Shown: piece by piece, positions 1 to 16,449 of the stretch
Layout of the letters: each line of letters opens with the position of its first letter
Numbering within the stretch: the stretch's first letter is position 1
Origin: a virus
Reading direction: 5' to 3' (one strand)
Virus record (IMG/VR): IMGVR_UViG_3300045010_000308
Location: 9,057-73,056 of that record
DNA: 64,000 nt
Made by a program: the position numbers and the translations under genes
Notes under the pieces: generated by a model
Databases searched by the model: none
Seen by the model: only the letters and a program-made list of their open reading frames with translations
Told to the model about the DNA's origin: nothing

Positions 1-2
1 CA

Positions 3-362
3 CCTAATCAGCGGGGGCGACGCAGCCGTGCGACGATCGTGCGGCAGGGTGAGAGCATCCTGAAAGTCGCCACGAATGTCGAGCGGCAGTTCGTCTCACG
101 GTCGGGTCGCACCATCTCCCGGCGTGAGGGTGGCACGCAGGTGAAACTCGCCCGCACATCGTCGGGTGCGCTGCGTGTGGTGAAAGGATGGAATCAGTTC
201 CGTGCGAAGGGCGGGCAGCCGACGAAGTGGCGGAAGGGCAGCGACCAGTTCCTGTATCGAGCAGTCACGCTGACGCAGGATCAGATCAGCGACTCATACC
301 AGCGGTTCATCGACGAGATGACGAAGCCTGCGTTCCCCGACTCTGGCAGAGAAGCCGCCTAG
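3..362 (+). CDS. hypothetical tail-region protein, 5'-truncated (frame open to window start)
   Basis: Frame of the 39..362 ORF has no stop back to base 3; basic protein directly upstream of the tape measure gene. Confidence 0.55.
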   Translation, partial: PNQRGRRSRATIVRQGESILKVATNVERQFVSRSGRTISRREGGTQVKLARTSSGALRVVKGWNQFRAKGGQPTKWRKGSDQFLYRAVTLTQDQISDSYQRFIDEMTKPAFPDSGREAA

Positions 363-368
363 TAATCT
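363..368 (+). promoter_or_regulatory. putative -10 element (TAATCT) for a leaderless tape measure transcript
   Basis: TAnnnT hexamer 6 nt upstream of ATG 375, no SD; typical actinobacterial leaderless geometry. Confidence 0.3.
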
Positions 369-374
369 GACCGC

Positions 375-2756
375 ATGGCTGAGCGCAAACTATCCCTGAT
401 CATTCTCGGCAAGGCGACGAGTGCGCTCGCCGCCATGAAGTCGGTGGGTGACGAGGCAGGGTCGCTCGGTAAGAAGGTGACTGATCTGCTGCCGTCGATG
501 AAGACGGTGGCTCTCGCCGGGGCTGCGGCGTTCGGTGCCGTCGCCGCCGCAGCCTATGGTGCGGTGCAGGCTGCGGCTCAGGATGAGCAAAGCCAGAAGA
601 AACTCGCCGACCAGTTGCGGCGCACCACGCAGGCGACCGATGAGCAGATCGCCGCCGTCGAGCAGCACATCTCAAAGCAGATGATGCTCACGGGCGTGAC
701 CGACGACGAGTTGAGACCTGCGATGGCGAATCTGGTGCGGGCGATCGGTGATGTGAACGCTGCTCAGCAGGCACTCATCTTGGCGCAGGACATCTCGGCT
801 GCGACCGGGAAGGACTTGGAGAGCGTGTCGCTTGCGCTCGGCAAGGCGTACAACGGCAGCATCACTGCGCTCACGAAACTCGGTGTGCCGCTCGATCAGG
901 CTGCGGTAAAGTCAAAGAACCTGACGCAACTCACGAAGTCATTACAGGATCAGTTCGGTGGCGCAGCCGCAGACTCTGCCGACACCTTCTCAGGTCGTCT
1001 GCGCATCCTGCAAGTGTCGCTCGGTGAGGCGGTCGAAGGGATCGGCTACGCACTGCTGCCTGCGGCTGAGATGCTGGTGGCGTTCGTACAGAAGCGGGTC
1101 GTGCCCGTCATACAGGCGTTCAGCGACAAACTCGCTGCGGGTGGCGGGCTGCGTGATGCTCTCATCGCAGGTGCGGCACAGATGGGCACCTTCGCATTTC
1201 AGGTGATCAGCATCGCCGAGAAGATAGCGGTCGGCTTCGTCACTCTCGGTAATGCGATCGTTGCGATCGGCAAGCCGATGCTCGTCGTCATCGGTAATCT
1301 CGCCGCTGGTCTAACGCTGCTCTTCACCGGGTCGTTCAGTAAGGCGCAAAAGATGTTCGACACTTTCGAGAAGGCGTATCTCGGACTCGATGCGCTGAAA
1401 GTGAACACTCAGGATGTGGTCGCCGAGTTCGCCAAGTTCCGCACCGAGGTGGTGGCGATGCAGAAACTGAATGCTGCGCTGGCGACCACCGACCTGCTCT
1501 CTCGCCGCTACGGGCAGACGGTGAAGGATACGGGCAGCGCACAAGACGACTTCCTGAAAGTGCTGAAAGGTCTGAGCGAGACGGCGGGTGGTGCGGGCGG
1601 GAAGGTGAAGCAGGTCGCCGACGCTATGAAGACCTACACGGATGCGCTGAGCAAGGCACGGGATGCGACCCGCTCGCAGGCTGATGCGACGAGGGGTGTG
1701 CAGAAGGCGCAGACCGATCTGGCTGCAAAGACAACTGCGGTGGCTGCTGCTCAGGCACGGTTCGACACCGTGATGCGTGGCTTCCCGGCGACGGCTAAGG
1801 AGAGCATCGCAGCGTCTCGCCGTTTCGCCGACGCACAGCGAGGTGTGCGAGACGCAGGTTTGCAGGTCGCCGATGCGGTGCGTGGGGTGCAGGATGCCGA
1901 GCAGCGTCTCGCCGAACTGCGGGCGAAGCAGGCTGATGCGGCGAAGGTGGCGGGTGCTGAGCGGTCGCTGGAACGGTCGAAGTACGGGGTGGAAGAGGCG
2001 AACTTTCGTGTGGCTGACGCTGAGCGGGAACTCGCTGAACTGCGTGCCGACCCGAACGCATCGGCGATCGACCTGCGGCGTGCGGAGATCGCTCTGGCTG
2101 AGGCGAAACTCGGTGTGTCTGATGCGGTGCAGTCGGTCGCCGATGCTGAGAAGCGTCTGGCGGATGAGCGGAACATGGCGGCTACCGCCGACGAGTTGGC
2201 TGACGCTGAGCGCAATCTGGAACGGGCGGAGTATGCGGTGACGGATGCGCTCGATGCGCAGCGGCGTGCGACGGATGAGCAGTCCGATGCGCAGCAGCAT
2301 CTCAACGAGATCACCTACGGTGCGGTCATCGGGTCGGTGGCGCACACGGCTGCGCTGAAAGAACTGGATGATGCGAAGCAGGCGCAGGTCGAGGCATCCG
2401 ATGCGCTCGCCGACGCTCTGCGCCGTGAGGCGGATGCGATGCGTGACCTGATCGCCGCACAGAAGGCTCTGCTGGAAGTGCAGGCGGCGACGAAGCCGAG
2501 GGTGCAGGCGGCTGCTCAGGCTGCGCTCGGTGTGTCGGTCGGTGCGGGCGGGGCGATCAGCGAGGCGATCGGCACCGTGTCAGCATCAGGTACGGCTGCG
2601 GCTGCGCCGGGTGGCACGCTGAATGTGCGGGTGGAGACCAGCCCGTTCGTGAACCCGCAGGATGTGGGGGCAGAGGTGGTCGATGCTCTCGCAGCGTACC
2701 TGCGCAGCAACGGCACGATCCCGATCCCTGTCGGCTCGTTTCTAGGCGTGGTCTGA
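375..2756 (+). CDS. tail tape measure protein (left-hand phage)
   Basis: 793 aa, Ala-rich and helical; N-terminal TMP-like region (QDISAATGKDLESVSLALGKAY, FGGAAADSADTFSG), hydrophobic middle, coiled-coil ADAERxLA repeats; followed by tail-tip gene. Confidence 0.85.
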   Translation: MAERKLSLIILGKATSALAAMKSVGDEAGSLGKKVTDLLPSMKTVALAGAAAFGAVAAAAYGAVQAAAQDEQSQKKLADQLRRTTQATDEQIAAVEQHISKQMMLTGVTDDELRPAMANLVRAIGDVNAAQQALILAQDISAATGKDLESVSLALGKAYNGSITALTKLGVPLDQAAVKSKNLTQLTKSLQDQFGGAAADSADTFSGRLRILQVSLGEAVEGIGYALLPAAEMLVAFVQKRVVPVIQAFSDKLAAGGGLRDALIAGAAQMGTFAFQVISIAEKIAVGFVTLGNAIVAIGKPMLVVIGNLAAGLTLLFTGSFSKAQKMFDTFEKAYLGLDALKVNTQDVVAEFAKFRTEVVAMQKLNAALATTDLLSRRYGQTVKDTGSAQDDFLKVLKGLSETAGGAGGKVKQVADAMKTYTDALSKARDATRSQADATRGVQKAQTDLAAKTTAVAAAQARFDTVMRGFPATAKESIAASRRFADAQRGVRDAGLQVADAVRGVQDAEQRLAELRAKQADAAKVAGAERSLERSKYGVEEANFRVADAERELAELRADPNASAIDLRRAEIALAEAKLGVSDAVQSVADAEKRLADERNMAATADELADAERNLERAEYAVTDALDAQRRATDEQSDAQQHLNEITYGAVIGSVAHTAALKELDDAKQAQVEASDALADALRREADAMRDLIAAQKALLEVQAATKPRVQAAAQAALGVSVGAGGAISEAIGTVSASGTAAAAPGGTLNVRVETSPFVNPQDVGAEVVDALAAYLRSNGTIPIPVGSFLGVV

Positions 2757-2757
2757 G

Positions 2758-4005
2758 GTGGCTACCACGCTCGTCTTCGGTGAGCAGATCACGGTGCTCG
2801 CCGCTCTCGGTTTCATCGTCAGAGAGTTCACGCTCGACAGCAGCACGCTCAACGGTGACGATGTGCTCGACGGCACGCTCGAAGGTCTAGACATCTCGCC
2901 GTATGTGCAGAGCCTGAGCATCAACCGGGGCAGGTCTGACCAGTTCTCGTCATTCAGGGCGGGCACCTGCACGATCGTGCTCAACAACGCCGATCGCCGC
3001 TTCGACCCGATCAACGAAGACTCGCCGTATTGGGATGCGACGACAGACAAGAGCGGGGTGACTCCGAGGCGGCGGGTGCAGGTGTCGTCTGGCAGCACCG
3101 CACTGTTCACGGGGCGCATCACCGACATAGATGTGGCGTATGACTTCTCGAACAGCACGGTGACGATCATCGCCGCCGACGACTTCGTGCTGCTGGCGAA
3201 CACGGTGACGGGTGCGGCGAGCACCCCGACCGCCGAACTGTCGGGTGCCCGTGTCGCACGGGTACTCGACCTGACCGAGGTGGATTATCCGAGCGACACG
3301 AGAAGCATCGACACGGGTGTGGCGACGGTCGGTGCGTATCAGATAGATGCCAACACGAATGTGGCGGCGTATCTCGCACGAGTCGCCGACGCTGAGCAGG
3401 GTCTCTTCTTCATACAGGCTGACGGCTACCTGCGGTTCTCGGATCGCACCAGCGGCGTATTCTCATCGCCTGTCGCCACCTTCGCTGATGACGGGTCAGG
3501 CATCGACTATCAGGGGCTGAGCACGATCTACGGGCAAGAGTTCCTGTTCAACCGTGTGCAGGCGACGACCGAGACGGGCACGGTGCAGGCTGCCGATGAT
3601 GCGGCGAGCCAGACCGAGTTCGGCATCTCCACCTTGTCGCTCGACAACCTGCTGCTCGCCAGCGATGGGGCTGCGCTCACTCTCGCCGAGCATCTGCTCA
3701 GTCTCTACAAAGACCCTGTGTATCGGTTCGACGACCTGCGGCTGGTGGTCTCGGCGATGACATCGGCGAACAGGAATGCGGTGCTCGGCATCGACATGGG
3801 CAGCGTCATCCGCATCACTCGCACCTTCCCGACAGGCAGCCCGGCGACGGTCACCGACGACTACGGGGTGGAGAGGATCACGCACCAGATACTGCCCGAC
3901 CGTCACATCGTCACGCTCGGTCTCTATGTCGCCGATCTCGTCTTCCCGTTCGTGCTCGACGATGCGACCTACGGTGTGCTCGACGCTCATAACGCCGTGA
4001 CCTGA
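2758..4005 (+). CDS. minor tail / tail-tip hub protein
   Basis: 415 aa directly after TMP; motifs SINRGR, GTCTIVLNNADRRFDP, LFTGRI, EQGLFFIQADG recur in siphophage tail-tip proteins. Confidence 0.7.
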   Translation: MATTLVFGEQITVLAALGFIVREFTLDSSTLNGDDVLDGTLEGLDISPYVQSLSINRGRSDQFSSFRAGTCTIVLNNADRRFDPINEDSPYWDATTDKSGVTPRRRVQVSSGSTALFTGRITDIDVAYDFSNSTVTIIAADDFVLLANTVTGAASTPTAELSGARVARVLDLTEVDYPSDTRSIDTGVATVGAYQIDANTNVAAYLARVADAEQGLFFIQADGYLRFSDRTSGVFSSPVATFADDGSGIDYQGLSTIYGQEFLFNRVQATTETGTVQAADDAASQTEFGISTLSLDNLLLASDGAALTLAEHLLSLYKDPVYRFDDLRLVVSAMTSANRNAVLGIDMGSVIRITRTFPTGSPATVTDDYGVERITHQILPDRHIVTLGLYVADLVFPFVLDDATYGVLDAHNAVT

Positions 4006-4007
4006 CC

Positions 4008-4016
4008 TGTTAGTAT
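4008..4016 (+). promoter_or_regulatory. putative extended -10 promoter (TGTTAGTAT)
   Basis: TGnTAnnnT 9 nt upstream of ATG 4026. Confidence 0.3.
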
Positions 4017-4025
4017 CTCAGTTCT

Positions 4026-4304
4026 ATGGCGATAACGGGCACACGACAGTGGGTGGCGGGCGAGACTGTCACGGCTGCGCTCGTGAATCAGTATCTGATG
4101 CGTGGCGTGAAGGTGTTTGCTGATGCTGCGACTCGTGACGCTGCCTACGATGGTGCTGGTGAACCGACTCTGGAAGAGGGCGAAGTGTGTTATCTCGCCG
4201 ACACGAATCAGGTGCTGGCGTACTCAGGTTCGGCGTGGTCGCCCGTAGGGGATGATGCGCCTGACTCTGATCAGATCGTGCTCGCAGCAGCAGTGTTCAG
4301 TTAG
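4026..4304 (+). CDS. module I anchor protein (tail-fibre N-terminal-like)
   Basis: 92 aa; WVAGETVTAALVNQYLM and EGEVCYLADTN resemble tail-fibre attachment segments; ends DSDQIVLAAAVFS, like the ends of 7775 and 9594. Confidence 0.6.
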   Translation: MAITGTRQWVAGETVTAALVNQYLMRGVKVFADAATRDAAYDGAGEPTLEEGEVCYLADTNQVLAYSGSAWSPVGDDAPDSDQIVLAAAVFS

Positions 4305-4316
4305 GAAGGATAAACG

Positions 4317-4679
4317 ATGGCGACATTTAGCAAGATCAAACTGAGCGGCTCGACAGATGGGCGGCTCATCAAGGTGGCGCAGACGGCGACTGCTGGCACG
4401 ACGATTCACACAGGTAGCAGCACGGCGACGACAATCGACGAGGTGTGGCTCTATGCGGTGAACTCTGATACGACTGACCGCAAACTCACGATCGAGTTCG
4501 GTGGTACTTCGTCGCCTGATGATCTCATCGAGCAGACGATCACTGCCGAGTCGGGTCTGCTGCTTGTTGTCGCTGGTCTCGTGATCGTCGGGAACGCTAC
4601 GCCGCTTGTGGTGCGTGCGTTTGCCGCTACTGCGAATGTGGTGATGGTCGGCGGTTATGTGAACCGCATCACCGCATAG
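4317..4679 (+). CDS. module I ~120-aa adaptor-like protein (paralog of 8045 and 9916)
   Basis: SD-like AGGAAGGA; MATFSK..LSGSTDGRLIKV..DEVWLYA..GYVNRITA, clearly homologous to two downstream copies. Confidence 0.75.
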   Translation: MATFSKIKLSGSTDGRLIKVAQTATAGTTIHTGSSTATTIDEVWLYAVNSDTTDRKLTIEFGGTSSPDDLIEQTITAESGLLLVVAGLVIVGNATPLVVRAFAATANVVMVGGYVNRITA

Positions 4680-4694
4680 GCGGCGACTGATGCG
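4656..4694 (+). repeat. 39-bp exact direct repeat, second copy at 8387..8425
   Basis: TATGTGAACCGCATCACCGCATAGGCGGCGACTGATGCG spans the adaptor stop, intergenic gap and adhesin start in modules I and II; a further 23-bp identity at 4725..4747 / 8456..8478. Confidence 0.9.
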
Positions 4695-6345
4695 ATACGG
4701 TGAGCGTTCTCGTTCGGGTACGAAGGTAAGCGGCTGGACTAAGCGTGATGTTGGCAAGCAAACGCTCGCCGTCGAGTTCCTGCTGGTCGGCGGCGGCGGA
4801 GGCGGCGGTTGCGGCGGAGGCGGTGGTGCTTGCGGAGGCGGCGGTGCTGGCGGGTTCGTCACAGGCTCTGGGATTATCGGCAAGACGACCTACACGGTGA
4901 AAGTCGGTGCAGCAGGAGCGGCGGCTACACAAAGCACAGCAGCAGGCGGCAACAACGGCAGCAACGGCACCGCATCATCGTTCATCTCATCTGCCAACGG
5001 CGGAGGCGGCGGCGCAGGAGCCGACGCCACCGTCGCCGTGAATGGTCAAGTCGGCGGTTCGGGCGGCGGTGGAGGCTCAAACAGCGGCGCAGGCGGTAGC
5101 GGTGTCTCAGGCGAAGGCAACAACGGAGCAGCAGCAGTCGGACAAGGTACGGGCGGAGGCGGCGGCGGCAAAGGCAGCGCAGCATCAGGCTCCACAGGCG
5201 GCAGCGGCTCGACCAACGACTTCACGGGTACCAGCATCACTTACTCGGCTGGCGGCAACGCCAGCGGAGGAGCGTCAGGTGCGGCGAACACGGGCAACGG
5301 CGGGCAAGGTAGCGGCACCGCCACAGGCTCGATTGCAGGCGCAGGCGGCTCGGGTCGCGTCGTCATCCGCTACCTCACCAGCGACGCAACTGGCTTGACG
5401 GTGACGGCATCAGGCGGCACATCGTTGCCCGTGGGCCTGTACACGGTCTGGACATTCACCTCGTCGGGAAGTTTCACGGTCACCGGCACGACATCGGTGA
5501 CCGACACGGCGGGTTTTTATGGAACCGCCACAGGCGGAACGGTGATCGCCGACCCGGCGGTGATCAACGGGCAAAACTACAGGATACTGCAGTTCACGGA
5601 ATCGGGCACGCTGGCCGTGACGAAGGCCGGGCTGTTCGACGTGTTGATGGTCGGCGGCGGCGGATCCGGTGGTTTCAGACCCAACGCTGGTAGTGCTGGC
5701 GGCGGTGGCGGTGGTGGCGTCGTCGAACAAACTTTCTTTGCGAGCGCAAACCAGACCGTGACTGTCGGTGCGAAAGGTATCGCGGTCACAACACAAGGTT
5801 CGGGTAATCGTGGTTCGTTCAGTCGTGTTGGTTCTCTTGCCGCCGGTGGTGGCGGCGGTGGGATAGGAACCGATGGCATTGGGTACGTGAATGGCGATAG
5901 TGCTGGTTGTGGCGGTGGCGGTGTAGGTAGCAACTCGTTCGGTCTTCGCACAGGCGGCTTGTCGCTGATTACACAAGGCAACAACGGTGGCGACGGTAGT
6001 GGAGCGTCAAGCACATCGGGTTCGGGCGGTGGCGGCGGCAGTACTTCAGTCGGCGGCAACGCTGGTCCTACGACAGGCGGAACAGGCGGCACGGGAACGG
6101 CGACGACGACCTTCACCGGTGGCACGGTAGTCACTCACATCGGTTGCGGCGGCGGCGGTGCGACAGGTTCAGGCGGCACGGGCGGAACGGCAGGCAACTC
6201 ATCTGGCGGAAATGGCGGTGTCGCAGGAACTTCCGCAGGTAGCAACGCAACTACTTCCTTCTTCGGTTCAGGCGGAGGCGGCGGTGGTGCTACTACATCC
6301 GGCGCAGGTTCGGACGGCGTCGTGTTCATCAGGTTCAAAGTATGA
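4690..6345 (+). CDS. glycine-rich (polyglycine) adhesin-like protein with two Gly-rich domains
   Basis: 551 aa; VEFLLVGGGGGGG..GGSGRVVIRY followed by FDVLMVGGGG..GSDGVVFIRFKV. Confidence 0.75.
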   Translation: MRYGERSRSGTKVSGWTKRDVGKQTLAVEFLLVGGGGGGGCGGGGGACGGGGAGGFVTGSGIIGKTTYTVKVGAAGAAATQSTAAGGNNGSNGTASSFISSANGGGGGAGADATVAVNGQVGGSGGGGGSNSGAGGSGVSGEGNNGAAAVGQGTGGGGGGKGSAASGSTGGSGSTNDFTGTSITYSAGGNASGGASGAANTGNGGQGSGTATGSIAGAGGSGRVVIRYLTSDATGLTVTASGGTSLPVGLYTVWTFTSSGSFTVTGTTSVTDTAGFYGTATGGTVIADPAVINGQNYRILQFTESGTLAVTKAGLFDVLMVGGGGSGGFRPNAGSAGGGGGGGVVEQTFFASANQTVTVGAKGIAVTTQGSGNRGSFSRVGSLAAGGGGGGIGTDGIGYVNGDSAGCGGGGVGSNSFGLRTGGLSLITQGNNGGDGSGASSTSGSGGGGGSTSVGGNAGPTTGGTGGTGTATTTFTGGTVVTHIGCGGGGATGSGGTGGTAGNSSGGNGGVAGTSAGSNATTSFFGSGGGGGGATTSGAGSDGVVFIRFKV

Positions 6346-6536
6346 ACAAGAACTATTCCGCAAAGGTCGTGAACAGCGTCGTCACCGAGATCATCGTTGC
6401 GGATCATTCATGGGCGACAGCGAACCTTGACGGCGAGTGGCATGACTTGGGCGGCGAACCGCTCACCGTTGCCGTAGGCGATACCTATGACGCGGTGAAC
6501 GATGTGTTTATATCATCCCAGGTGGATAATCCATGA
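6342..6536 (+). CDS. small chaperone-like protein (GDTYDAVNDVF family)
   Basis: 64 aa; ATGA overlap with the upstream gene; shares the GDTYDAxNDVF motif with 6621, 9314 and 12091. Confidence 0.65.
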   Translation: MNKNYSAKVVNSVVTEIIVADHSWATANLDGEWHDLGGEPLTVAVGDTYDAVNDVFISSQVDNP

Positions 6537-6620
6537 GCGTCTCGAATGTCGCTTATGTCGGGGTTCGGGGCCTAAGAATGGAATACAATACGACATCCAC
6601 ACAACAGGAGGCATAGAGCT

Positions 6621-6872
6621 ATGGCACACTTCGCAAGAGTCGAAAACGGCACCGTGCGAGAGGTCATCGTGATCGGCAACGGCGACTGCGGCGGCGGAGA
6701 GTTCCCGGCAAGCGAGTCGGTCGGCCAGGCGTTCATCGCCAAGATCGGCTTGTCGGGCGAGTGGCGGCAGACCTCTTACAACGCGAACTTTCGCGGCAAG
6801 TACGCCGGCATCGGCGACACGTACGACGCAGAAAACGACGTCTTCGTGTCCCCGGCAACCGGCGTGGAATAA
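6621..6872 (+). CDS. small chaperone-like protein (GDTYDAxNDVF family)
   Basis: 83 aa; AGGAGG SD; MAHFARV..WRQTSYNANFRGKYAGIGDTYD. Confidence 0.75.
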   Translation: MAHFARVENGTVREVIVIGNGDCGGGEFPASESVGQAFIAKIGLSGEWRQTSYNANFRGKYAGIGDTYDAENDVFVSPATGVE

Positions 6873-6880
6873 AGACAACT

Positions 6881-7561
6881 ATGCCGTTCACGTCCGTCTT
6901 GGGCGCCTCGTCGGTCATCAAGCCAGGCGTGTGCACCTCGTCCACTCGCCCGACTGCGCCCTATGTCGGGCAGCTGGTGTTCGAGACCGACACGAACCGT
7001 CTTGTGGTGTTCACGGCCTCTGGCTGGGTGTATCAAACTGCGACTGGAGCGCCTGGATTGGTCCTCGTCAAGTCGGAGACTTCGTTTTCTGGGTCGTCGA
7101 GCGTGACCGCCGACGGCGTGTTCACCAGCACCTACACCAACTACAGGGTTGACCTGCGCTACGAAACGTCGGGGTCGGGCAACGAAGTAAGACTCAGACT
7201 GCGAACAGGCGGCACGAGCACAAGCAGCAACTACAACGTCCAGCAAATGATATTCGATCACGCAACATCGTTCTCGTCACGTCAATCGTCACTAACAAGT
7301 TTTCCTTTGTCGGGTCAAACCAACGGGTCGTTCGTCAGCGCGGTGACGTGCACGATTTTCGGACCGCAACTCACGTCACCGACGCAGTTCATCGCCAACA
7401 ATGCACCCAACCAAGGTGCTTACACGACGCCGCAGGCTGGCCAGAACAGCGGCAACCAATCGTCGTCAACGTCGTTCGACGGCATAGAGTTCTTCCCGAC
7501 ATCTGGGTCGCCGTCCACGATGACCGGCTCCTACACGATCTACGGATTGGCAAAGTCATGA
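6881..7561 (+). CDS. putative short tail-fibre / receptor-binding protein
   Basis: Start reassigned to ATG 6881 (MPFTSVLG); CTSSTRPTAPYVGQLVFETDT attachment-like motif, then a Ser/Thr-rich beta domain ending GSYTIYG. Confidence 0.6.
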   Translation: MPFTSVLGASSVIKPGVCTSSTRPTAPYVGQLVFETDTNRLVVFTASGWVYQTATGAPGLVLVKSETSFSGSSSVTADGVFTSTYTNYRVDLRYETSGSGNEVRLRLRTGGTSTSSNYNVQQMIFDHATSFSSRQSSLTSFPLSGQTNGSFVSAVTCTIFGPQLTSPTQFIANNAPNQGAYTTPQAGQNSGNQSSSTSFDGIEFFPTSGSPSTMTGSYTIYGLAKS

Positions 7562-7773
7562 CCTACCGCATCAACGACAACGGCACCGACCGCGACATGA
7601 CGGCGGCAGAAGCCGCCATCTACGAGCAGGCGGTCGCCGACGCACTAGCCCAGGCTGCGGCGGGGGCGGCTGCCCTGGAAGCAGCCGTCGCCGCAAGAGC
7701 ATCCGCAAAAGCCAAGCTCGCCGCGCTGGGATTGACCGAGGCAGAGATCAACGCCCTCACGGGAGGAATGTAA
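7558..7773 (+). CDS. small tail-fibre-associated protein
   Basis: 71 aa from ATG 7558 (ATGA overlap); RDMTAAE..AKAKLAALGLTEAEINAL. Confidence 0.6.
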   Translation: MTYRINDNGTDRDMTAAEAAIYEQAVADALAQAAAGAAALEAAVAARASAKAKLAALGLTEAEINALTGGM

Positions 7774-7774
7774 G

Positions 7775-8035
7775 GTGCCGATAGACTTCCCCAACTCGCC
7801 GTCAAACAACCAGGTCTACGCCGTCGGCAACAGGTCGTGGGTCTACGCCACAGCAACGAATACTTGGACATTGCAGTCTTCTGCGGTGCTTGGAGCCAAT
7901 ACTGTCACCACCTCAGAGATAGCAGATGGTACGATAGTCAACGCAGACATCTCTGCTGCGGCGGCGATCAACACGACAAAGATAACCAACTGGGAAGATG
8001 ACCAAGTCGTCATCTCCAGCCAGATCTTTGGATAA
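7775..8035 (+). CDS. module II anchor protein (MPIDFPNSP type)
   Basis: 86 aa; N-terminus shared with 9594; ends WEDDQVVISSQIFG. Confidence 0.65.
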   Translation: MPIDFPNSPSNNQVYAVGNRSWVYATATNTWTLQSSAVLGANTVTTSEIADGTIVNADISAAAAINTTKITNWEDDQVVISSQIFG

Positions 8036-8044
8036 GGAGGCAGC

Positions 8045-8410
8045 GTGGCGACCTACAGCAAGGTTCAACTCAGCGGCGGTGCGGGTGGCAGGCTCATCAA
8101 GGTCGCCGCAACGGCGACGGCTGGTACCGCCATTCACACGACCGGTGTATCGACCAGCACACTCGACGAGGTCTGGCTGTATGCGCAAAATGACCACACG
8201 TCCGACGTGCTGCTGACGATCGAGTTTGGCGGCACCTCGTCGCCAGATGACTTGATCCGCCAGACAATCACGTCTCGCGCTGGCTTGCTGCTGGTCGTTC
8301 CAGGGCTTCTTTTGGCGGGCGACGGCTCAAGTGGCCGTGCGGTGCGCGCGTTCGCGGCGACTGCGAACGTGGTGATGGTCGGCGGCTATGTGAACCGCAT
8401 CACCGCATAG
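8045..8410 (+). CDS. module II ~120-aa adaptor-like protein
   Basis: TAAGGAGG SD; paralog of 4317, same C-terminus VRAFAATANVVMVGGYVNRITA. Confidence 0.75.
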   Translation: MATYSKVQLSGGAGGRLIKVAATATAGTAIHTTGVSTSTLDEVWLYAQNDHTSDVLLTIEFGGTSSPDDLIRQTITSRAGLLLVVPGLLLAGDGSSGRAVRAFAATANVVMVGGYVNRITA

Positions 8411-8420
8411 GCGGCGACTG

Positions 8421-9314
8421 ATGCGTTTCGGTGAGCGCACTCGTTCAGGTACTTTGGTAAGCGGCTGGACTAAGCGTGCTGTGTCGACTGGTCTTCCCCT
8501 AGCGGTTGAGTATCTAGTCATCGCTGGTGGCGGCGGTGGTGGCACGGGTGGCGGCGGCGGTGGTGGTGCGGGTGGTTACAGAAATGGAACAGTGGGTGAG
8601 ACGACAGGCGGCGGCGGCGGCGCAGAGGCGGCGATGCCAATCACGGCTAATGTTTTGTACACCATTACCATCGGTGGTGGTGGTGCTTCTGCAACCAGCG
8701 GCTCCGATAGTTCGATTTCTGGTACTGGGCTATCAACAATAACATCCACTGGTGGCGGCAGAGGTGGAAACTTTGTTACCGCAGGAAGCACTGGTGGTTC
8801 TGGCGGCGGCGGCGGCAAAGACGGCGGTGGTAGTGGCGCAAGAACAACATCACCCGTGATTCAGGGAAATGTTGGTGGTGCGAGCCTGGGCGGTGCAACC
8901 TTTGGTTCTGGCGGCGGCGGCGGTGCTGGCGCTGTCGGTTCGGCAGGACTAGTCAACGAAGCAGGAGGTAACGGAGGCAACGGGCTTTCATCTTCGATTT
9001 CAGGGTCATCAGTTACACGCGCTGGCGGCGGCGGCGGCGGCCACAACGGCAATCAAGGTACTGGTGGTTCTGGCGGCGGCGGAAATGGTAGTGGTACTAC
9101 TTCAGGCAGCCCCGGCTCAGTGAATACAGGTAGTGGTGGTGGTGGTGGGAGTTACCAGGGCGGTTCTGGTGGTTCTGGTGGTAAGGGAGTCGTCATTATC
9201 AGACAACCCATCACGGCAAAGTCTCCGACAACACTGACAGGCGCAACGACGACCGATACGGCAACGCATCGTGTCTTCACCTTCAACGACAGCGGAACTA
9301 TCAGGTGGTCATAA
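8421..9314 (+). CDS. glycine-rich adhesin-like protein
   Basis: 297 aa; N-terminus MRFGERTRSGTLVSGWTKR matches 4690; VEYLVIAGGGGGG..GGKGVVIIR. Confidence 0.75.
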   Translation: MRFGERTRSGTLVSGWTKRAVSTGLPLAVEYLVIAGGGGGGTGGGGGGGAGGYRNGTVGETTGGGGGAEAAMPITANVLYTITIGGGGASATSGSDSSISGTGLSTITSTGGGRGGNFVTAGSTGGSGGGGGKDGGGSGARTTSPVIQGNVGGASLGGATFGSGGGGGAGAVGSAGLVNEAGGNGGNGLSSSISGSSVTRAGGGGGGHNGNQGTGGSGGGGNGSGTTSGSPGSVNTGSGGGGGSYQGGSGGSGGKGVVIIRQPITAKSPTTLTGATTTDTATHRVFTFNDSGTIRWS

Positions 9315-9586
9315 TGGCGTACTTCGCTGAACTCGACGACACGAACACGGTGCTGAGAGTGATCAGCGTCAGCAACGATGTGTGCGGTGAACCGACGCTC
9401 GCATTCCCCGATACCGAAGCCGCTGGTCGTGCGTTCATCGCCAACACGCTGAAACTTGGCGGCACTTGGAAGCAGACTTCGTACAACGCCAACTTCCGTG
9501 GCAAGTACGCAGGCATCGGGGACACTTATGATGCGGTGAACGACGTCTTCGTTGCGCCGACGCCGCCAGGCGGCGAGATAGGATAG
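9314..9586 (+). CDS. small chaperone-like protein (GDTYDAVNDVF family)
   Basis: 90 aa from ATG 9314 (TAATG overlap); WKQTSYNANFRGKYAGIGDTYDAVNDVF. Confidence 0.75.
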   Translation: MAYFAELDDTNTVLRVISVSNDVCGEPTLAFPDTEAAGRAFIANTLKLGGTWKQTSYNANFRGKYAGIGDTYDAVNDVFVAPTPPGGEIG

Positions 9587-9593
9587 GCTACCG

Positions 9594-9899
9594 ATGCCGA
9601 TTGATTTTCCGAACAGTCCGACGGTCAATGACGTCTACTCAGCCGGCGGGAGAAGCTGGACCTGGAACGGGACGTCTTGGGTGCTGAACGCCTATGTCGG
9701 CGTCGTCCCGGCGGGAGCGGTCGGCACGACCGAGCTGGCGAACAACGCCGTCACTTCTTTGAAGTTGGGACCCACCGGTGCGGTCAACGGCCAGGCCTTG
9801 TTGGCCAACTCTTCGACGGCTACTGGGTTGGAGTGGGGTCAGGCAGGGTCTCCTTCCGATGATGCAAGCGCGGTTTTGGGTACTCAAGTTTTCAGCTGA
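9594..9899 (+). CDS. module III anchor protein (MPIDFPNSP type)
   Basis: 101 aa; ends PSDDASAVLGTQVFS. Confidence 0.65.
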   Translation: MPIDFPNSPTVNDVYSAGGRSWTWNGTSWVLNAYVGVVPAGAVGTTELANNAVTSLKLGPTGAVNGQALLANSSTATGLEWGQAGSPSDDASAVLGTQVFS

Positions 9900-9915
9900 A
9901 GATTGGAGCAGATAG

Positions 9916-10281
9916 ATGGCAACATTCACGAAGATGAAGTTCAGCGAATCTACCGATGGTCGCCCCATCAAGGTCGGGGCGACGAGCATCGCTTCGGGCA
10001 CGCCGATTCACGCTGGTTCTCCTACGGCGACGACTTACGACGAGATCTGGCTGTATGCGATGAACTCCTCGGCTTCGTCGGTGAAGCTGACGGTGGGGTG
10101 GGGCGGCACCACCGACCCCGATGATTTGATTGAACTCACGGTTCTTGCCGAGGCTGGCTTGGTGACGGTTGCCCCCGGCATGCTCATCAAGGGCAACGCG
10201 ACTCCGCTCGTGGTGAAGGCGGCGGCGGGTACGGCGAACGTGATCACGATTCACGGATTTGTCAACCGAATCACGGTGTAG
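9916..10281 (+). CDS. module III ~120-aa adaptor-like protein
   Basis: Paralog of 4317 and 8045 (STDGRPIKV, DEIWLYA, GFVNRITV). Confidence 0.75.
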   Translation: MATFTKMKFSESTDGRPIKVGATSIASGTPIHAGSPTATTYDEIWLYAMNSSASSVKLTVGWGGTTDPDDLIELTVLAEAGLVTVAPGMLIKGNATPLVVKAAAGTANVITIHGFVNRITV

Positions 10282-10284
10282 CTG

Positions 10285-11202
10285 ATGGCTACGGCTCGCC
10301 GCCAACTCGGGTACGTTTCGTCGTTGACGACGCAGTCCGTCCCCCCGGGCGGCTTGCCGGTTGAGTGCCTCGTCATCGGCGGCGGCGGCGGTGGCGGCAG
10401 GATGCACGGTGGCGGCGGTGGTGCTGGCGGCTATGTATGTTCGGTTGTCGGGGAGAACTCAGGTGGCGGCGCGGTCGCCGCAACTACCTTCTCGCTGAAT
10501 AGGAACCTGACCTACGGAGTGGTGGTTGGGGGCGGCGGCTCAGGCTCAACTTCCGCCAGCACGAGAGGCGGCAGCGGCACGAACAGCGTCTTCGTCGTGG
10601 CGGCGATAGGCGGCGGTGGCGGAGGCAGTAGCTCCGGAGAGAGTCCAGGCGGGCCAGGCGGTTCGGGTGGCGGCGGCGCAGCAAACGCGACCAACACGGG
10701 CGGCGCAGGAACGAGCCACCAAGGTTTCGCAGGTGGCGCAGGTGCGCCGAGCGGCGGCAATCCCTCAGGTGGCGGTGGCGGTGGTGCCGGTGCGGTCGGC
10801 GTTCAAGGCAACTTGTCGGGATACGCAGGCGCAGGCGGCGCAGGTGTCTCATCAAGCATCACGGGTTTGGCGGTCACTCGCGGCGGCGGCGGCGGTGGCG
10901 GCGGCCACAACGCCGCAGATAGGGGCGGCGCAGGCGGCTCGGGTGGCGGCGGCGCAGGCTCAGGAGTAGCTGTCGTAGGTTCACCAGGCTCACCGAACAC
11001 AGGCGGCGGCGGCGGCGGTAGCGGTCACGACGGCGGCAACAACTTAGGTGGGAACGGCGGCTCGGGCATCGTCGTTGTCCGCTACCTGACTTCTGCCGCA
11101 TCAGGTCTCACCGTCACCGCAACAGGCGGCGGCACCTCCGCTCCTAGCGGTTCTTACACGGTCTGGACATTCACATCGTCGGGTACGTTGGCGGTGACGT
11201 GA
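10285..11202 (+). CDS. glycine-rich adhesin-like protein
   Basis: 305 aa; N-terminal LGYVSS motif; C-terminus RYLTS..YTVWTFTSSG matches the middle of 4690. Confidence 0.75.
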   Translation: MATARRQLGYVSSLTTQSVPPGGLPVECLVIGGGGGGGRMHGGGGGAGGYVCSVVGENSGGGAVAATTFSLNRNLTYGVVVGGGGSGSTSASTRGGSGTNSVFVVAAIGGGGGGSSSGESPGGPGGSGGGGAANATNTGGAGTSHQGFAGGAGAPSGGNPSGGGGGGAGAVGVQGNLSGYAGAGGAGVSSSITGLAVTRGGGGGGGGHNAADRGGAGGSGGGGAGSGVAVVGSPGSPNTGGGGGGSGHDGGNNLGGNGGSGIVVVRYLTSAASGLTVTATGGGTSAPSGSYTVWTFTSSGTLAVT

Positions 11203-11239
11203 TGGCACGCCTCGCATCGCCGTCAAGTGAGGTGGCGGA

Positions 11240-12094
11240 ATGACCCGCTCGTACCTCGGCTATGTTTCTTCGCAGACGACGGGCACGGTTGCGGTTGACA
11301 TCCCCTACGGCGTAGCGACGGGCGGCTCATCGGCTTCACGAACCATCGGTGGTCAGACCTACACGGTGCTGACCTTCTCGTCAGACGACAACCTTGTCGT
11401 GTCTAAGGCTGGTTTGTTCGACGTGTTGCTTGTCGGTGGTGGCGGCGGCGGCGGGTCAGGTTCAGACCCGCAATCTGGCGGCGGTGGCGGCGCAGGCGCA
11501 TTAGTTGGATTTGCAGCCACGACCACGATCTACCTTCAGGCTGCGACCTACGCTGTTGACGTCGGTGCAGGCGGCGCTGGATACACCAACTCAAATGGGT
11601 TTTCGACTGGCGCTGCGTCATACATCGGCAACGTCATTTCGGCTTGTGGCGGCGGCGGCGGCGCTTGTCAAGATGTTGCTTTGGCAGGCAGCGGCGGCTC
11701 GGGCGGCGGCAGACAAACTGGCATGAACGTAGGTGGATATTCAGTCGATGAAACATTCGGCAACCGCGGCGGAGTCGGCACGGGCAATCATGGCGCTGGT
11801 GGCGGCGGTGGATACGGCGGAGTCGGTGGCAACGCGGCTGGAACGACGGGCGGTTCGGGCGGCAACGGAATCGACGTGTCGACTTGGGGAACAAGCGCAA
11901 GTACCGACAACATTGCGGCAGGCGGCGGCGGCTCGGGTTCAACTGCAGGTGGCGCAGCAGGCACAGGCGGCGTAGCAGGTTCCACAGGCGATGGCAACAG
12001 CGCCACAACTGCTGGCTCTGGCGGCGGCGGCGGTCGTGGTTCGGCTGGCGGCAACGGTGCGGCTGGCAAAGTATGGGTGAGGTTCAAGGTATGA
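11240..12094 (+). CDS. glycine-rich adhesin-like protein
   Basis: 284 aa; LGYVSS N-terminus; KAGLFDVLLVGGGG..VWVRFKV matches the second half of 4690. Confidence 0.75.
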   Translation: MTRSYLGYVSSQTTGTVAVDIPYGVATGGSSASRTIGGQTYTVLTFSSDDNLVVSKAGLFDVLLVGGGGGGGSGSDPQSGGGGGAGALVGFAATTTIYLQAATYAVDVGAGGAGYTNSNGFSTGAASYIGNVISACGGGGGACQDVALAGSGGSGGGRQTGMNVGGYSVDETFGNRGGVGTGNHGAGGGGGYGGVGGNAAGTTGGSGGNGIDVSTWGTSASTDNIAAGGGGSGSTAGGAAGTGGVAGSTGDGNSATTAGSGGGGGRGSAGGNGAAGKVWVRFKV

Positions 12095-12312
12095 GCGACA
12101 CACTGACGTACTTCGCCAAAGTTGAGAACGGTGTCGTCACCGATGTTCGTGTCGTGACGTGGGATTTCTTGTGCGCCAACCCTGACCGCTACGGCGACAG
12201 TTCGCTATGGGTAGAAACCTTTCACGACAACTCCCAACGCGGCAAATACGCAGGCATAGGCGATACTTATGATGCGGTGAACGATGTGTTCGTTGCGCCG
12301 ACGCCGCCGTAA
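12091..12312 (+). CDS. small chaperone-like protein (GDTYDAVNDVF family)
   Basis: 73 aa from ATG 12091 (ATGA overlap); YFAKVENGVV..RGKYAGIGDTYDAVNDVF. Confidence 0.7.
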   Translation: MSDTLTYFAKVENGVVTDVRVVTWDFLCANPDRYGDSSLWVETFHDNSQRGKYAGIGDTYDAVNDVFVAPTPP

Positions 12313-12341
12313 GCGCGCCTCGCGACAAAGCGCAGAGAAGA

Positions 12342-14111
12342 GTGGCACGCCTGAAGATCGCCGTCTACACGATCGCGCTCAACGAGAAGAAGTTCGTTGA
12401 CCCGTGGTATGAGTCGGCTAAAGACGCAGACTACCTGCTGATCGCCGACACCGGCTCGACCGACGGGACGGTCGAGCGCGCGCGAGAGCTCGGGATCAAC
12501 GTCGCGCAGATCACGGTCAAGCCGTGGCGGTTCGACGACGCGCGCAACGCGTCGCTCGCGCTGCTGCCGGCGGACATCGACTTCTGCGTCGCGCTCGACA
12601 TGGACGAGGTCCTCGTGCCTGGCTGGCGTGAGCACCTCGAGAAGGCGCCGCCCGGCACGACCCGCCCGCGCTACAAGTACGTCTGGAGCTGGAACACAGA
12701 CGGCAGCGAGGGACTCGTGTACGGCGCAGACAAGGTCCACGCTCGCAGCGGGTACCGGTGGGTGCACCCGGTGCACGAGGTCTTGGCGCCGACGGACGGA
12801 GAAGAGACCCAGAGCTGGGTCGGCATGGAGGTCCACCACTTCCCCGACCGCTCGAAGTCGCGCGGGCAGTACCTGCCGCTGCTCAAGAAGGCCGTCGACG
12901 AGAGGCCGATGGACGACCGCAACGCGTACTACTACGCGCGTGAGCTGTTCTTCTACGGCCAGGCCGAAGACGCACGGCGCGAGTTCAAGCGCCACCTCGC
13001 GCTGCCGACCGCGACGTGGCGCGCCGAGCGCGCGGCCTCGATGCGGTACCTCGCTCAGCTCGAGCACGACGAGGCCGAGGCCTGGCTGCTGCGCGCGTGC
13101 GCCGAGGCGCCGGAGTTCCGCGAGCCCTGGGTCGAGCTCGCTCGGCACTACTACGACCGGCAGTCGTGGGAAGACTGCCTGTCGGCCGCGAGGCGGGCGC
13201 TCACGATCACAGAGAAGCCGCTGCTGTACATCAACGACGCCGCCGCGTGGAGCTCGCTGCCGCACGACCTCGCCAGCATCGGCGCCTGGCACGCCGGGCA
13301 GAGAGGCGCGGCGGTCGAGCACCTGCGCGGCGCGCTGCGGGTCGAGCCGGGCAGCGAGCGCCTCCAGGCGAACCTCGCCATGATGCTGCGGGTGACGCAC
13401 CCGGAGCGCGCGGTGGCCGTCGTCCCGTCGAGGTCGAACGTCGAGGGCTGCATGCTCGTCCTCGAGCGCCTCGAGAGAGACCCGCAGGTCAGCGCGGTCG
13501 TGCTCGTCGCGGACGGAGACGAGGCCTGCCGGACCTACGGAGCGCTGCTCTCCGAGCGCGGGCCGGAGCTGCGGAAGGTCCGGCTCGAGCGCGTCGAGCG
13601 CGGCGCCGGCATCCACGCGATGTGGAACATCGGCGTCGAGGCCGCCCGGCGCGAAAAATCCGCGGTTGCCCTAGTGAACGACGACGTCACCGTCGCCGAC
13701 GACACCATAGGGAGCCTCGTGTCGCTGCTCGCGTACGACAGGTCGCTCGGGCTCGTCTGCCCGGCCTACGACTACCGCAAGTTCACGGACATCACGCAGG
13801 ACGTGTCGACGGTGTGCAACGGCCGGTACGACGGCAGCGGGGGGCTCGCCGGGTTTTGCATGGTCTTGGCCGCAGACATCGTGCAGCGGTTCAGGTTTGA
13901 CGAGTCGATGAAGTGGTGGTACGGAGACAACGACGTGCTGCTGCACGTCACGCGCAACGAGAAGCGCCGCGCGGCGATCACGAGCCTCGCTCGGTGCAGC
14001 GGCAACTCGTCGGCGACCGTAGACAACGACCCGCCCGAAGACTTCTGGAAGGTCGTCCAAGACGACAAGCTCAAGTTCTACGTGAAGTGGGGCATCTGCG
14101 ATGCACGGTGA
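12342..14111 (+). CDS. glycosyltransferase, GT2 + TPR + second GT2-like domain
   Basis: IAVYTIALNE, DTGSTDGT, FDDARNASL, LDMDE (DxD), HPVHE; TPR-like helices; C-terminal VALVNDDV..WWYGDND. Confidence 0.85.
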   Translation: MARLKIAVYTIALNEKKFVDPWYESAKDADYLLIADTGSTDGTVERARELGINVAQITVKPWRFDDARNASLALLPADIDFCVALDMDEVLVPGWREHLEKAPPGTTRPRYKYVWSWNTDGSEGLVYGADKVHARSGYRWVHPVHEVLAPTDGEETQSWVGMEVHHFPDRSKSRGQYLPLLKKAVDERPMDDRNAYYYARELFFYGQAEDARREFKRHLALPTATWRAERAASMRYLAQLEHDEAEAWLLRACAEAPEFREPWVELARHYYDRQSWEDCLSAARRALTITEKPLLYINDAAAWSSLPHDLASIGAWHAGQRGAAVEHLRGALRVEPGSERLQANLAMMLRVTHPERAVAVVPSRSNVEGCMLVLERLERDPQVSAVVLVADGDEACRTYGALLSERGPELRKVRLERVERGAGIHAMWNIGVEAARREKSAVALVNDDVTVADDTIGSLVSLLAYDRSLGLVCPAYDYRKFTDITQDVSTVCNGRYDGSGGLAGFCMVLAADIVQRFRFDESMKWWYGDNDVLLHVTRNEKRRAAITSLARCSGNSSATVDNDPPEDFWKVVQDDKLKFYVKWGICDAR

Positions 14112-14613
14112 CGTGCTGGCGTGGGTGTCACGCGCGATCGCAGGCTGCCGGCGCACGGGGCCTGGCGCGCACGTCTTAGAGTTCGGCAGCCTAGACATCA
14201 ACGGCAGCGTCAGGCCGCTGTTCGCAGAGCTGGTGTCTGGCGGAGGTTCGTACCTCGGTATCGACGTGCAAGAAGGCCCGGGAGTCGACCTGGTGGCCGA
14301 CGCAAGCGCCTACAAGAGCGACACGCGGTGGGACTTCGTCGTCTGCTGCGAGGTGTTCGAGCATACGGCGCTGTGGCCGAAGCTCGTCGCTAACGCGCAC
14401 TCGCTCCTCGTGCCGGGCGGAGTCTTCATCGCGACGATGGCCGGCGAGGGCCGGCCGCCGCACTCTGCGATCGACGAAAACCCGATCCGCGCCTGGGAAT
14501 ACTACAAGAACGTGACCGGGCCGATGCTAGACGAGAAGCTCGCGTCGGCGGGATTCACGAGCCGCGAGGTCGACGTCTACCGCACCGACACGCGGTGCTG
14601 GGCGGTCAAGTAG
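14101..14613 (+). CDS. class I SAM-dependent methyltransferase
   Basis: VLEFGSLDING, YLGIDVQEGPGVD, WDFVVCCEVFEH, LVPGGVFI. Confidence 0.8.
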   Translation: MHGDVLAWVSRAIAGCRRTGPGAHVLEFGSLDINGSVRPLFAELVSGGGSYLGIDVQEGPGVDLVADASAYKSDTRWDFVVCCEVFEHTALWPKLVANAHSLLVPGGVFIATMAGEGRPPHSAIDENPIRAWEYYKNVTGPMLDEKLASAGFTSREVDVYRTDTRCWAVK

Positions 14614-15118
14614 CTTTTTTCTCGCGAAGCGCCTTCTTGAGCTTCTTGCGTTCTTTCGCTTCTCTTGCCGCGTGGTAGGCGTTGACGGCGTTCGCGCTCG
14701 TGCGACTTCTCCAGTGGAAGCCGCACTCTCCGCACGTCACGATCTTCGCGGTCGACCACCTGCCGCCGCCGGCAAGCTCCTGCTCGCTGACGCTGAGGCA
14801 CACCGGCCGCGCGCTGCAGTACGGGCACTGCGGCGACCGCCGCCTGCGGATCTCCTCTCCCGTGTGAGACACCGAGAGCGCCCTGCGGATGTCGTCTTCC
14901 GTGCGACCGCCCCAGACTCCCCAGAGCTGCTTCGTGTCGAGCGCCCACTTGAGGCACTCGTTCCTGACCTCGCAACCGAAGCAAAAGTTGCAGGCCCGGC
15001 GCTGCTCTAAGAGCTCAGGCGAGAAGAACAGCGGCTTCATCGACCGAGCCTCGTCGGTCTTCTGCGTGCAGCGCGCACGAGAGTGCCACGACACGTCGTC
15101 GAGCTCGAAGACGCTCAC
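14606..15118 (-). CDS. whiB: WhiB-family transcription factor with C-terminal zinc ribbon
   Basis: W..RARC..CFGCEVRNECL..WGVWGG (4 Cys plus G-V-W-G-G turn); extra CPYC..CGEC. Confidence 0.85.
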   Translation of the reverse strand: MSVFELDDVSWHSRARCTQKTDEARSMKPLFFSPELLEQRRACNFCFGCEVRNECLKWALDTKQLWGVWGGRTEDDIRRALSVSHTGEEIRRRRSPQCPYCSARPVCLSVSEQELAGGGRWSTAKIVTCGECGFHWRSRTSANAVNAYHAAREAKERKKLKKALREKKAT

Positions 15119-15121
15119 GGC

Positions 15122-16416: not shown

Positions 16417-16449
16417 GGTCTTGCTTGGCCCCGAGGGGATGACCTGCTC

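Follow-up and report, generated by a model that had tools for sequence, protein, structure and literature searches.

A lake virus record that probably joins two actinobacterial phages through shared tail-fiber cassettes

We analyzed a 64,000-nucleotide (nt) stretch of viral DNA, referred to here as the window, which corresponds to bases 9057 to 73056 of the 73,056-bp IMG/VR record IMGVR_UViG_3300045010_000308; the 9 kb upstream of the window were also analyzed. Our conclusion, to which we assign a probability of about 0.85, is that this record is a chimeric metagenome assembly of two separate phages of lake actinobacteria. The left part belongs to a small siphophage (phage A) and the larger right part to a relative of Actinomycetia phage DSL-LC01 (phage C), and the two were probably joined inside tail-fiber cassettes that both kinds of phage use. 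For description, we divide the window into compartments A (up to position 5355), B (5356 to 12341), and C (12342 to 64000). An earlier sequence-only reading of the window had proposed two phages, the left one avoiding palindromes, joined in glycine-rich cassettes, and had named a chimeric assembly as the simplest explanation. The first proposal is borne out by two sets of virion genes, by 0 palindromic sites where about 320 are expected, and by a candidate seam between positions 4652 and 7717. The second also emerges as the best explanation, on the strength of relatives of both phages, the break points of independent contigs, and sequencing depth in two of four lake-water runs.

Two virion gene sets and two composition steps

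The record contains two complete, nonhomologous sets of virion genes, one in A (from TerS to the tail tip) and one in C (capsid, major tail, adaptor, tape measure, and minor tails). Tape measure and tail-tip genes are thus present on both sides, with opposite orientations, as the sequence-only reading had stated (Table 1). The left set makes up the entire virion-gene arm of a small siphophage. Contigs of A relatives reach 31 to 34 kb, and the A capsid protein finds its best GenBank match among cluster-J-like Mycobacterium phages, at only 36% identity. The 14 kb of A that are present hold virion genes only; neither an integrase nor any other gene for mobility is among them. The A-type relatives, in contrast to an insert, are self-contained phages that encode a DNA metabolism of their own; in L009, a natural relative that avoids the same palindromes, the fiber cassettes are followed on the same strand by exonuclease, RecE-like, and PAPS-reductase-like genes, and no such genes are found in this record.

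Compartments B and C together are a relative of DSL-LC01 (OQ999401), with their own capsid, tape measure, and tail genes. By tblastn, 36 of the 41 open reading frames (ORFs) called in 12342 to 63998 match that phage, nearly all of them colinear (from 102 kb down to 56 kb of DSL-LC01) and with protein identities of 35 to 87%. The two also share an opposite-strand fiber block that ends at a homologous glycosyltransferase (101148 to 126390 in DSL-LC01; 5356 to 14111 in the window). DSL-LC01 is described in its report as a 129,469-bp metagenome-assembled genome, PCR-checked by the authors, whose Actinomycetia host is only predicted (PMC10611076). Its annotation has a single virion module, and no A structural gene matches it except through one domain of 150 amino acids (aa). 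That domain lies in a 584-aa protease-containing protein of A (record bases 3346 to 5100, plus strand), which is 51% identical over 150 aa to the DSL-LC01 gene at 51753 to 52796; both this protein and the 1,435-aa protein of C match phrog_2859, so that one head-associated domain is shared.

Compartment A is further set apart by the loss of palindromes. GGCC, AGCT, ACGT, and CGCG are all absent from positions 1 to 5355, where a maximal-order Markov model predicts 27.5, 22.8, 18.3, and 57.7 occurrences, respectively. The site-free run covers 14,386 bp, from record base 26 to window position 5356, where the first CGCG stands (the first GGCC follows at 5434), and the longest other site-free gap in the 73-kb record is 651 bp. 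To obtain a codon null, we made 200 synonymous-codon shuffles over 13,098 coding nt of A, which kept the proteins and the codon usage. The shuffles contained 320 sites on average (standard deviation, 12.5; minimum, 289), against 0 observed; therefore, the avoidance was made by codon choice. Several 6-bp palindromes are likewise missing from A, namely CTCGAG (10.9 expected), GTCGAC (9.0), ATCGAT (7.2), and CTGCAG (6.2), while GATC (38 observed and 53 expected), TCGA (36 and 52), and GCGC (36 and 55) are only mildly depleted. GAGCTC, GACGTC, and GTCGAC rise from 0 each in 1 to 5355 to 68, 58, and 105 past 12341, and the palindromes of C have observed/expected ratios near 1. On all of these points (the four missing words, the positions of the first CGCG and GGCC, codons chosen to dodge sites, and abundant 6-bp sites beyond 12.3 kb), the sequence-only reading was accurate. 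Tetranucleotide usage is not uniform along the window either, as that reading required: r is 0.94 inside A and 0.92 inside C, against 0.56 when A is compared with C. Its two-sided boundary needs amendment. The sharp change is real, but there are three compartments rather than two: the densities are 0.21, 10.9, and 37.4 sites per kb in A, B, and C, and the tetranucleotide usage of B resembles neither A nor C (r = 0.63 and 0.64). The only three forbidden sites of A (GGCC at record base 9 and CGCG at 24 and 26) fall in record bases 1 to 32, which consist of G and C only and are unlike the rest of A; this start could be a genome end, a poly-G sequencing artifact, or a scrap of other sequence.

Neither of the palindrome steps that the sequence-only reading had noted, at 5356 and at about 12.3 kb (12341), is the seam. 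Positions 4758 to 7040 of the window are 95% identical over 2,316 bp to an independent IMG/VR contig, L166, and each 60-nt window between 5100 and 5460 is 100% identical. Sites stand at matching positions in L166 (CGCG at 8556 for 5356 and GGCC at 8634 for 5434), and the stretch equivalent to 4758 to 5355 is site-free in both. With L166 identical at 100% across position 5356, we rejected this position as the seam. The fiber gene that spans this step encodes a 551-aa protein; its N-terminal domain, to about 5400, is site-free, and its C-terminal extension, from 5356, has sites. An A-type contig, L173, is 93 to 97% identical to the window from about 4620 to 5400 and then diverges, and from aa 23 on, the protein is 94% identical to that of L166. 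Because L166 keeps the step intact and L173 shares the N-terminal domain only, the gene is an older natural fusion of a purged N-terminal domain with an unpurged C-terminal extension, and it travels as a module. As for L166 itself, its bases 1 to 10452 have a GC content of 30 to 44% in the first 5.5 kb and 60 to 70% thereafter, and the high-GC part holds two glycine-rich fiber genes, one of them being the 95 to 100% match to window positions 4758 to 7040. It represents either a very recent crossing of a large GC gap by a cassette or a further chimera formed at a locus of this type.

The step at 12341, in turn, recurs in relatives of C. Upstream and downstream of the glycosyltransferase, respectively, CGCG occurs 1.1 and 7.0 times per kb in L086 and 1.7 and 13.3 times per kb in L089, and GGCC occurs 0.2 and 1.7 times per kb in L086 and 0.7 and 5.9 times per kb in L089. 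This boundary is therefore a natural property of C-type genomes. The synteny of the relatives, the recurring palindrome step, and a depth in B that follows C led us to reject 12341 as the seam.

The join and its explanations

To characterize the A-to-C join, we compared loci from relatives of both phages. The A relatives comprise 80 IMG/VR loci (L006 to L085) and 80 JGI metagenome loci, with some loci common to both sets. We looked in both sets for 12 C proteins, the glycosyltransferase, and the methyltransferase and found them in no locus (0/80 and 0/80); conversely, 10 A proteins were all missing from each of 80 glycosyltransferase loci. The A tail-tip gene is also absent from all five whole records behind glycosyltransferase loci. 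Two of these records, of 56 kb and 64 kb, count as bona fide C-type because their C tape measure and glycosyltransferase have the same spacing, and no A tail tip is found in the 12.5 kb and 9.4 kb upstream of that gene.

Depth was assessed from Logan contigs of four lake-water runs (X1 to X4) placed on window positions 1 to 18000, that is, from assembled contigs and not from reads or read pairs. In X3, depth is 3.4 to 5.3 for A, 14.9 to 16.8 for the right part of B, and 17.5 for C; in X4, the corresponding values are 2.9 to 3.7, 14.5 to 15.7, and 15.4. The A and C pieces of these two runs have 0 differences from the window. The region of cassette 2 has a depth of 15.7 to 16.8 in X3 and X4, equal to C, and positions 9482 to 12138 form a single Logan contig with depths of 14.9 and 14.5. 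B and C are 3 to 5 times deeper than A in both runs, and this C strain, together with B, therefore occurs mostly without A. B itself probably belongs with C, because cassette or fiber genes lie upstream of the same glycosyltransferase in C relatives, the composition step recurs there, and the depth of B tracks that of C.

The independent contigs also break near the proposed join. A 7,395-nt Logan contig spans window positions 1 to 4652 with 0 differences in both X1 and X2; independent A contigs stop at 4652 in these runs and at 4318 in X3. Many contigs join or quit the path at 4823 to 4997. Summed depth in 4201 to 4800 reaches 213 against a baseline of 32 in X1 and 104 against 11 in X2, which is 6 to 9 times that of A; the join therefore passes through sequence common to many genomes in the sample. 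Farther right, L166 homology stops at 7040, a Logan contig begins at 7045, and contigs that track C depth start at 7717. Most Logan joints, with sides of 20 to 30 nt, were set aside as probable repeats. The seam could lie at the hub formed by the phrog_30535 gene and the N-terminal domain of the 551-aa protein or at the right end of the module, 7040 to 7045.

Collectively, these observations suggest the following course of events. Phage A would be a small siphophage whose entire genome has lost GGCC, AGCT, ACGT, CGCG, and several 6-bp palindromes, presumably because host restriction enzymes exert the selection and synonymous changes respond to it. Phage C would be a DSL-LC01 relative of about 130 kb that shows no such avoidance and whose opposite-strand fiber block, B, ends at the glycosyltransferase. 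Both kinds of phage would draw on the same exchangeable fiber cassettes, with near-identical cassette sequence present in many genomes of the source sample. The assembler would then have passed from the left arm of A into a shared cassette stretch and exited into the fiber block of C, probably aided by equal coverage of A and C in the source sample. On this account, the step at 5356 would be an old recombination joint inside a mobile fiber gene and the step at 12341 the edge of C's palindrome-poor fiber block.

Several results weigh against this account. The depths of A and C are equal in X1 (32.4 and 30.8) and in X2 (11.2 and 11.4), as would fit a single molecule, so that the depth comparison advocated in the sequence-only reading, made here on Logan contigs, favors two genomes in X3 and X4 and fails to separate them in X1 and X2. 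If X1 and X2 are near-replicates, as they may be, equal depth amounts to a single coincidence; equal depth would also lead coverage-guided repeat resolution to join two genomes wrongly. The seam is placed only to an interval, 4652 to 7717. No listed Logan piece bridges 4652 to 5900, an absence to which we gave no weight, since holes in Logan contigs prove nothing. A search of JGI metagenome contigs for the natural right arm of the same A strain found none, the best tail-tip identity being 81%. Finally, of the three bona fide C-type lineages whose sequence extends upstream of the glycosyltransferase, effectively only one (L086 to L088) shows cassette homologs there; L089 and L090 have none at an E value of ≤1e-5.

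Equal depth in X1 and X2 is also what a true hybrid would produce. Such a phage would have arisen by homologous exchange in a shared fiber cassette between a coinfecting A-type siphophage and a DSL-LC01-like phage, would carry two virion gene sets, and would dominate X1 and X2. The join is in frame, and cassettes do move between unrelated phages, given the 95% identity of 4758 to 7040 to L166 with its backbone of 30 to 44% GC. However, the same C strain is 3 to 5 times commoner than the same A strain in X3 and X4, and none of the 160 A-relative loci or the two bona fide C-type records has this arrangement. Exact B pieces in X1 and X2 (depths of 19.9 to 25.6 and 7.6 to 12.5) are shallower than both A and C, and the left end of the record coincides with the start of the A TerS region. 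To our knowledge, no genome in which terminase, portal, capsid, and tape measure are all doubled has been described. We thus regard a hybrid as unlikely; were it real, two lake samples would be dominated by a phage that has both virion gene sets and whose halves stand at a 1:1 ratio in depth.

If the seam were instead placed at 12.1 to 12.3 kb, A and B would form a true genome with all three cassettes, to which C was mis-joined via a short repeat at 12224 to 12308 (86% identical to 9486 to 9567). That repeat lies where Logan contigs break in all four runs (12138 to 12247), and the gene families of B are those that follow the tail tip in A-type relatives. This arrangement is nevertheless quite improbable, as the depth of the right part of B follows C in X3 and X4 (14.5 to 16.8, against 15.4 to 17.5 for C and 2.9 to 5.3 for A), and the same cassette families lie directly upstream of a glycosyltransferase homolog in L086 to L088, L095, L097, and L130. 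Moreover, L009 and L192, relatives with the same purge set as A, are site-free through and past their cassettes, each with 0 of the four sites in 21 kb, whereas B has 10.9 sites per kb. Least credible of all is that a C-type genome harbors A as a mobile element, for example an integrated satellite or a prophage-like insert. The equal depths and the un-A-like, G/C-only start of the record would suit an insert, but no mobility gene is present in 14 kb of A, the right junction is an in-frame fiber gene and not an attachment site, A-type relatives are self-contained phages, and the depths are decoupled in X3 and X4.

With a chimeric assembly as our preferred explanation, the IMG/VR record, which is classed as linear with a completeness estimate of 55%, should be split; that estimate and any inferences of host, taxonomy, or gene sharing made from the record mix two phages. 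More generally, cassette-rich fiber loci are places to distrust viral assemblies. The assembly of viral metagenomes has been examined in benchmarking papers (PMC5610896, PMC3901335). The present record resembles chimeric viral metagenome contigs in that the join lies in shared sequence, the halves differ in composition, relatives, and coverage (in two of four runs), and independent assemblies break there; it differs in that the shared sequence is a circulating tail-fiber cassette and not a generic repeat.

Fiber cassettes and the purge in A-type phages

The cassettes of B consist of a 120-aa phrog_30535 protein, a glycine-rich PF21722 protein, and a 93-aa phrog_7759 protein. All four glycine-rich proteins score above the Pfam gathering threshold for PF21722 (24.3 bits). 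In the module shared with L166, the first 22 residues are phage-specific and the remainder is common to both. In the 15 A-type relatives examined, the typical order after the tail-tip gene is a 92-aa gene, phrog_30535, a glycine-rich gene, phrog_7759, another glycine-rich gene, and a phrog_7759-like gene. On the C side, L086 to L088 (identical coordinates in three metagenomes), L095, L097, and L130 carry phrog_30535, phrog_7759, and glycine-rich cassettes within 10 kb upstream of the glycosyltransferase homolog, on the same strand; L086 to L088 look like one phage assembled in three metagenomes. The fiber block of DSL-LC01 differs in being made of collagen-like genes and a 2,853-aa glycine-rich protein rather than of these cassettes, and one short N-terminal match links the two. 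L089, the closest C-type relative, has collagen-like fiber genes at this place and then a glycosylation island. The island (L089, 3478 to 9351) has a low GC content (0.46), extends from the fiber genes to the glycosyltransferase, and contains several glycosyltransferases and a methyltransferase; the window lacks it.

The sequence-only reading had the two halves share near-identical module DNA. This is not seen within the record, where the best internal match is 72% over 528 bp (4318 to 4829 against 8046 to 8569), with both copies left of 12341. A Logan contig at a depth of about 40 in X1 and X2 joins 9553 to 11217 (side of 30 nt) and skips cassette 3; a variant of the fiber array without cassette 3 therefore co-occurs, at a depth unlike that of A or C. 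Searches for close sequences were negative. A megablast of window positions 1 to 12341 against GenBank phages gave no match, nor did a tblastn of the 551-aa fiber protein against the same phages, although matches could be masked by the low-complexity filter. Exact words of 39 and 40 nt taken from 4181 to 4219 and 7289 to 7328 had zero matches in IMG/VR, and that database offered no second assembly of the same strains.

We scored a palindrome as purged when its count was ≤10% of the expectation from base composition. Among the 80 relatives L006 to L085, with a GC range of 0.42 to 0.61, AGCT is purged in 80, GGCC in 65, CCGG in 63, ACGT in 48, TCGA in 45, CATG in 29, CGCG in 28, and GATC in 24, giving 29 distinct combinations. 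Palindromes are purged in 504 of 1,280 locus-by-word tests, compared with 447 of 19,185 for nonpalindromic 4-mers; the loss of AT-rich palindromes (TTAA, TATA) may come partly from stop-codon and GC effects. Pairs with an average nucleotide identity (ANI) of at least 88% share their purge set, and pairs at 72 to 79% ANI can differ by hundreds of sites. For example, ACGT and CGCG are both at 0 in L009 and at 165 and 210 in L012, and TCGA is at 0 in L020 and at 80 in L025. In purged relatives (L006, L007, L071, L075, L073, and L061), residual forbidden sites cluster 430 to 2,900 nt after the tail-tip gene, in the fiber cassettes. Conversely, L173 tolerates GGCC and CGCG, yet an island that lacks the sites (9907 to 11085) covers its cassette. 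Cassettes therefore seem to carry the purge pattern of their donor.

Mosaicism of tail-fiber and receptor-binding modules between phages is a known concept. It is matched here by the same cassette families in A-type siphophages of about 30 kb and C-type phages of about 130 kb and by one module that is 95 to 100% identical in a contig with a backbone of 30 to 44% GC. What differs is that the donor purge travels with the cassette, so that purged genomes have islands of forbidden sites and the unpurged L173 has an island free of them. Restriction-site avoidance in phage genomes has likewise been reported (PMC6286503); a literature search on it in actinobacteriophages found no paper, and no further search was made on this family. 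The likeness lies in a depletion that is specific to palindromes and measured against a codon-preserving null. The differences are the extreme degree, with four 4-mers wholly missing over 14.4 kb here and 21 kb in relatives, and a purged set that is lineage-specific; restriction enzymes of the host are the presumed link. The biology behind the artifact is more useful than the join itself: a family of uncultured lake actinophages fully purges lineage-specific sets of 4-bp palindromes and swaps fiber cassettes with much larger phages that do not avoid these sites. The purge pattern in a cassette could thus trace the direction and recency of receptor-binding-module transfer.

Feature map and further observations on phage C

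Table 1. Features of the window and of the record upstream of it (positions are those of the window)
Feature	Position	Strand	Basis or remark
TerS, TerL, portal, protease, major capsid, adaptor, tail terminator, major tail protein	9 kb upstream of window	+	PHROG matches
ORF ending at 362	Up to 362	+	A virion arm
Tape measure, 793 aa	375-2756	+	Weak PHROG tape-measure matches (E 1.8e-7); 66-72% identity to same-position gene in close relatives
Tail-tip protein, 415 aa	2758-4005	+	PHROG matches
92-aa gene	4026-4304	+	A-type context; with 120-aa gene, 80-95% nt identity to A-type relative L016
120-aa phrog_30535 gene, first of fiber cassette 1	4317-4679	+	Still A-type context; 80-95% nt identity to L016
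Interval holding the proposed assembly seam	4652-7717		Logan contig ends and depth changes
Glycine-rich fiber protein, 551 aa	4690-6345	+	PF21722 at aa 23-228, 79.5 bits
7759-like gene, 83 aa	6621-6872	+	Fiber-associated
266-aa gene	6761-7561	+	Weak minor-tail matches
Small fiber-associated genes	7348-7773 and 7775-8035	+	ORF calls
Cassette 2: phrog_30535	8045-8410	+	PHROG
Cassette 2: PF21722 protein	8421-9314	+	30.6 bits
Cassette 2: phrog_7759	9305-9586	+	PHROG
Cassette 2: 101-aa ORF	9594-9899	+	N terminus matches DSL-LC01 collagen-like protein 121046-123076
Cassette 3: phrog_30535	9916-10281	+	PHROG
Cassette 3: PF21722 proteins	10285-11202 and 11240-12094	+	57.3 and 56.1 bits
Family-2 glycosyltransferase with tetratricopeptide repeats	12342-14111	+	60% identity to DSL-LC01 101148-102224, last gene of that phage's opposite-strand fiber block
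S-adenosylmethionine methyltransferase	14101-14613	+	Together with the glycosyltransferase, start of palindrome-rich C
Replication and nucleotide-metabolism block	14606-33080	-	Colinear with DSL-LC01 83.8-101 kb
C5 DNA methyltransferase	16450-17691	-	Pfam
RecA-like protein	24122-24907	-	87% identity to DSL-LC01
DNA polymerase I	28197-30020	-	83% identity to DSL-LC01
Helicase, dCMP deaminase, thymidylate-synthase-family protein	Within 14606-33080	-	Replication block of C
C virion block	33129-63998	-	DSL-LC01 colinearity and PHROG
Tail fiber and minor tail genes	33129-38794	-	C virion block
Tape measure, 1037 aa	38791-41904	-	phrog_4197, E 3.5e-74; same length (1037 aa) in DSL-LC01
Adaptor, major tail	Within 33129-63998	-	DSL-LC01/PHROG matches
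Major capsid	47158-49032	-	78% identity to DSL-LC01
Portal/protease-like protein, 1435 aa	49711-54018	-	C virion block
Giant ORF, >2963 aa, runs off window	55107-63998	-	Homolog of 3,289-aa DSL-LC01 hypothetical protein

The sequence-only reading had called the right-hand phage hypermodified, a description that its genes do not establish. Pfam matches related to modification in C are a C5-cytosine methyltransferase, a thymidylate-synthase-family protein, a dCMP deaminase, a nucleoside triphosphate (NTP) transferase, glycosyltransferases, and a weak kinase-like match. Judged from these predicted functions, the set is compatible with DNA modification and equally with methylation plus ordinary nucleotide metabolism. 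The NTP transferase (384 aa), the protein with the weak kinase-like match (263 aa), and a third protein, of 415 aa and unassigned family, at 20096 to 23379 on the minus strand, have no DSL-LC01 counterpart and sit among the nucleotide-metabolism genes. Part of the giant ORF at the right end of the window resembles an exonuclease subunit of DNA polymerase (phrog_192; E = 8e-23). Direct repeats occur at three places in C: 60-nt-phased repeats of 81 to 88% identity at 34694 to 35047 in a 676-aa tail-fiber gene, a 93-nt tandem pair (96%) near 23.5 kb (23519 to 23707), and a 200-nt pair (72.5%) at 49741 to 50238 in the 1,435-aa gene.

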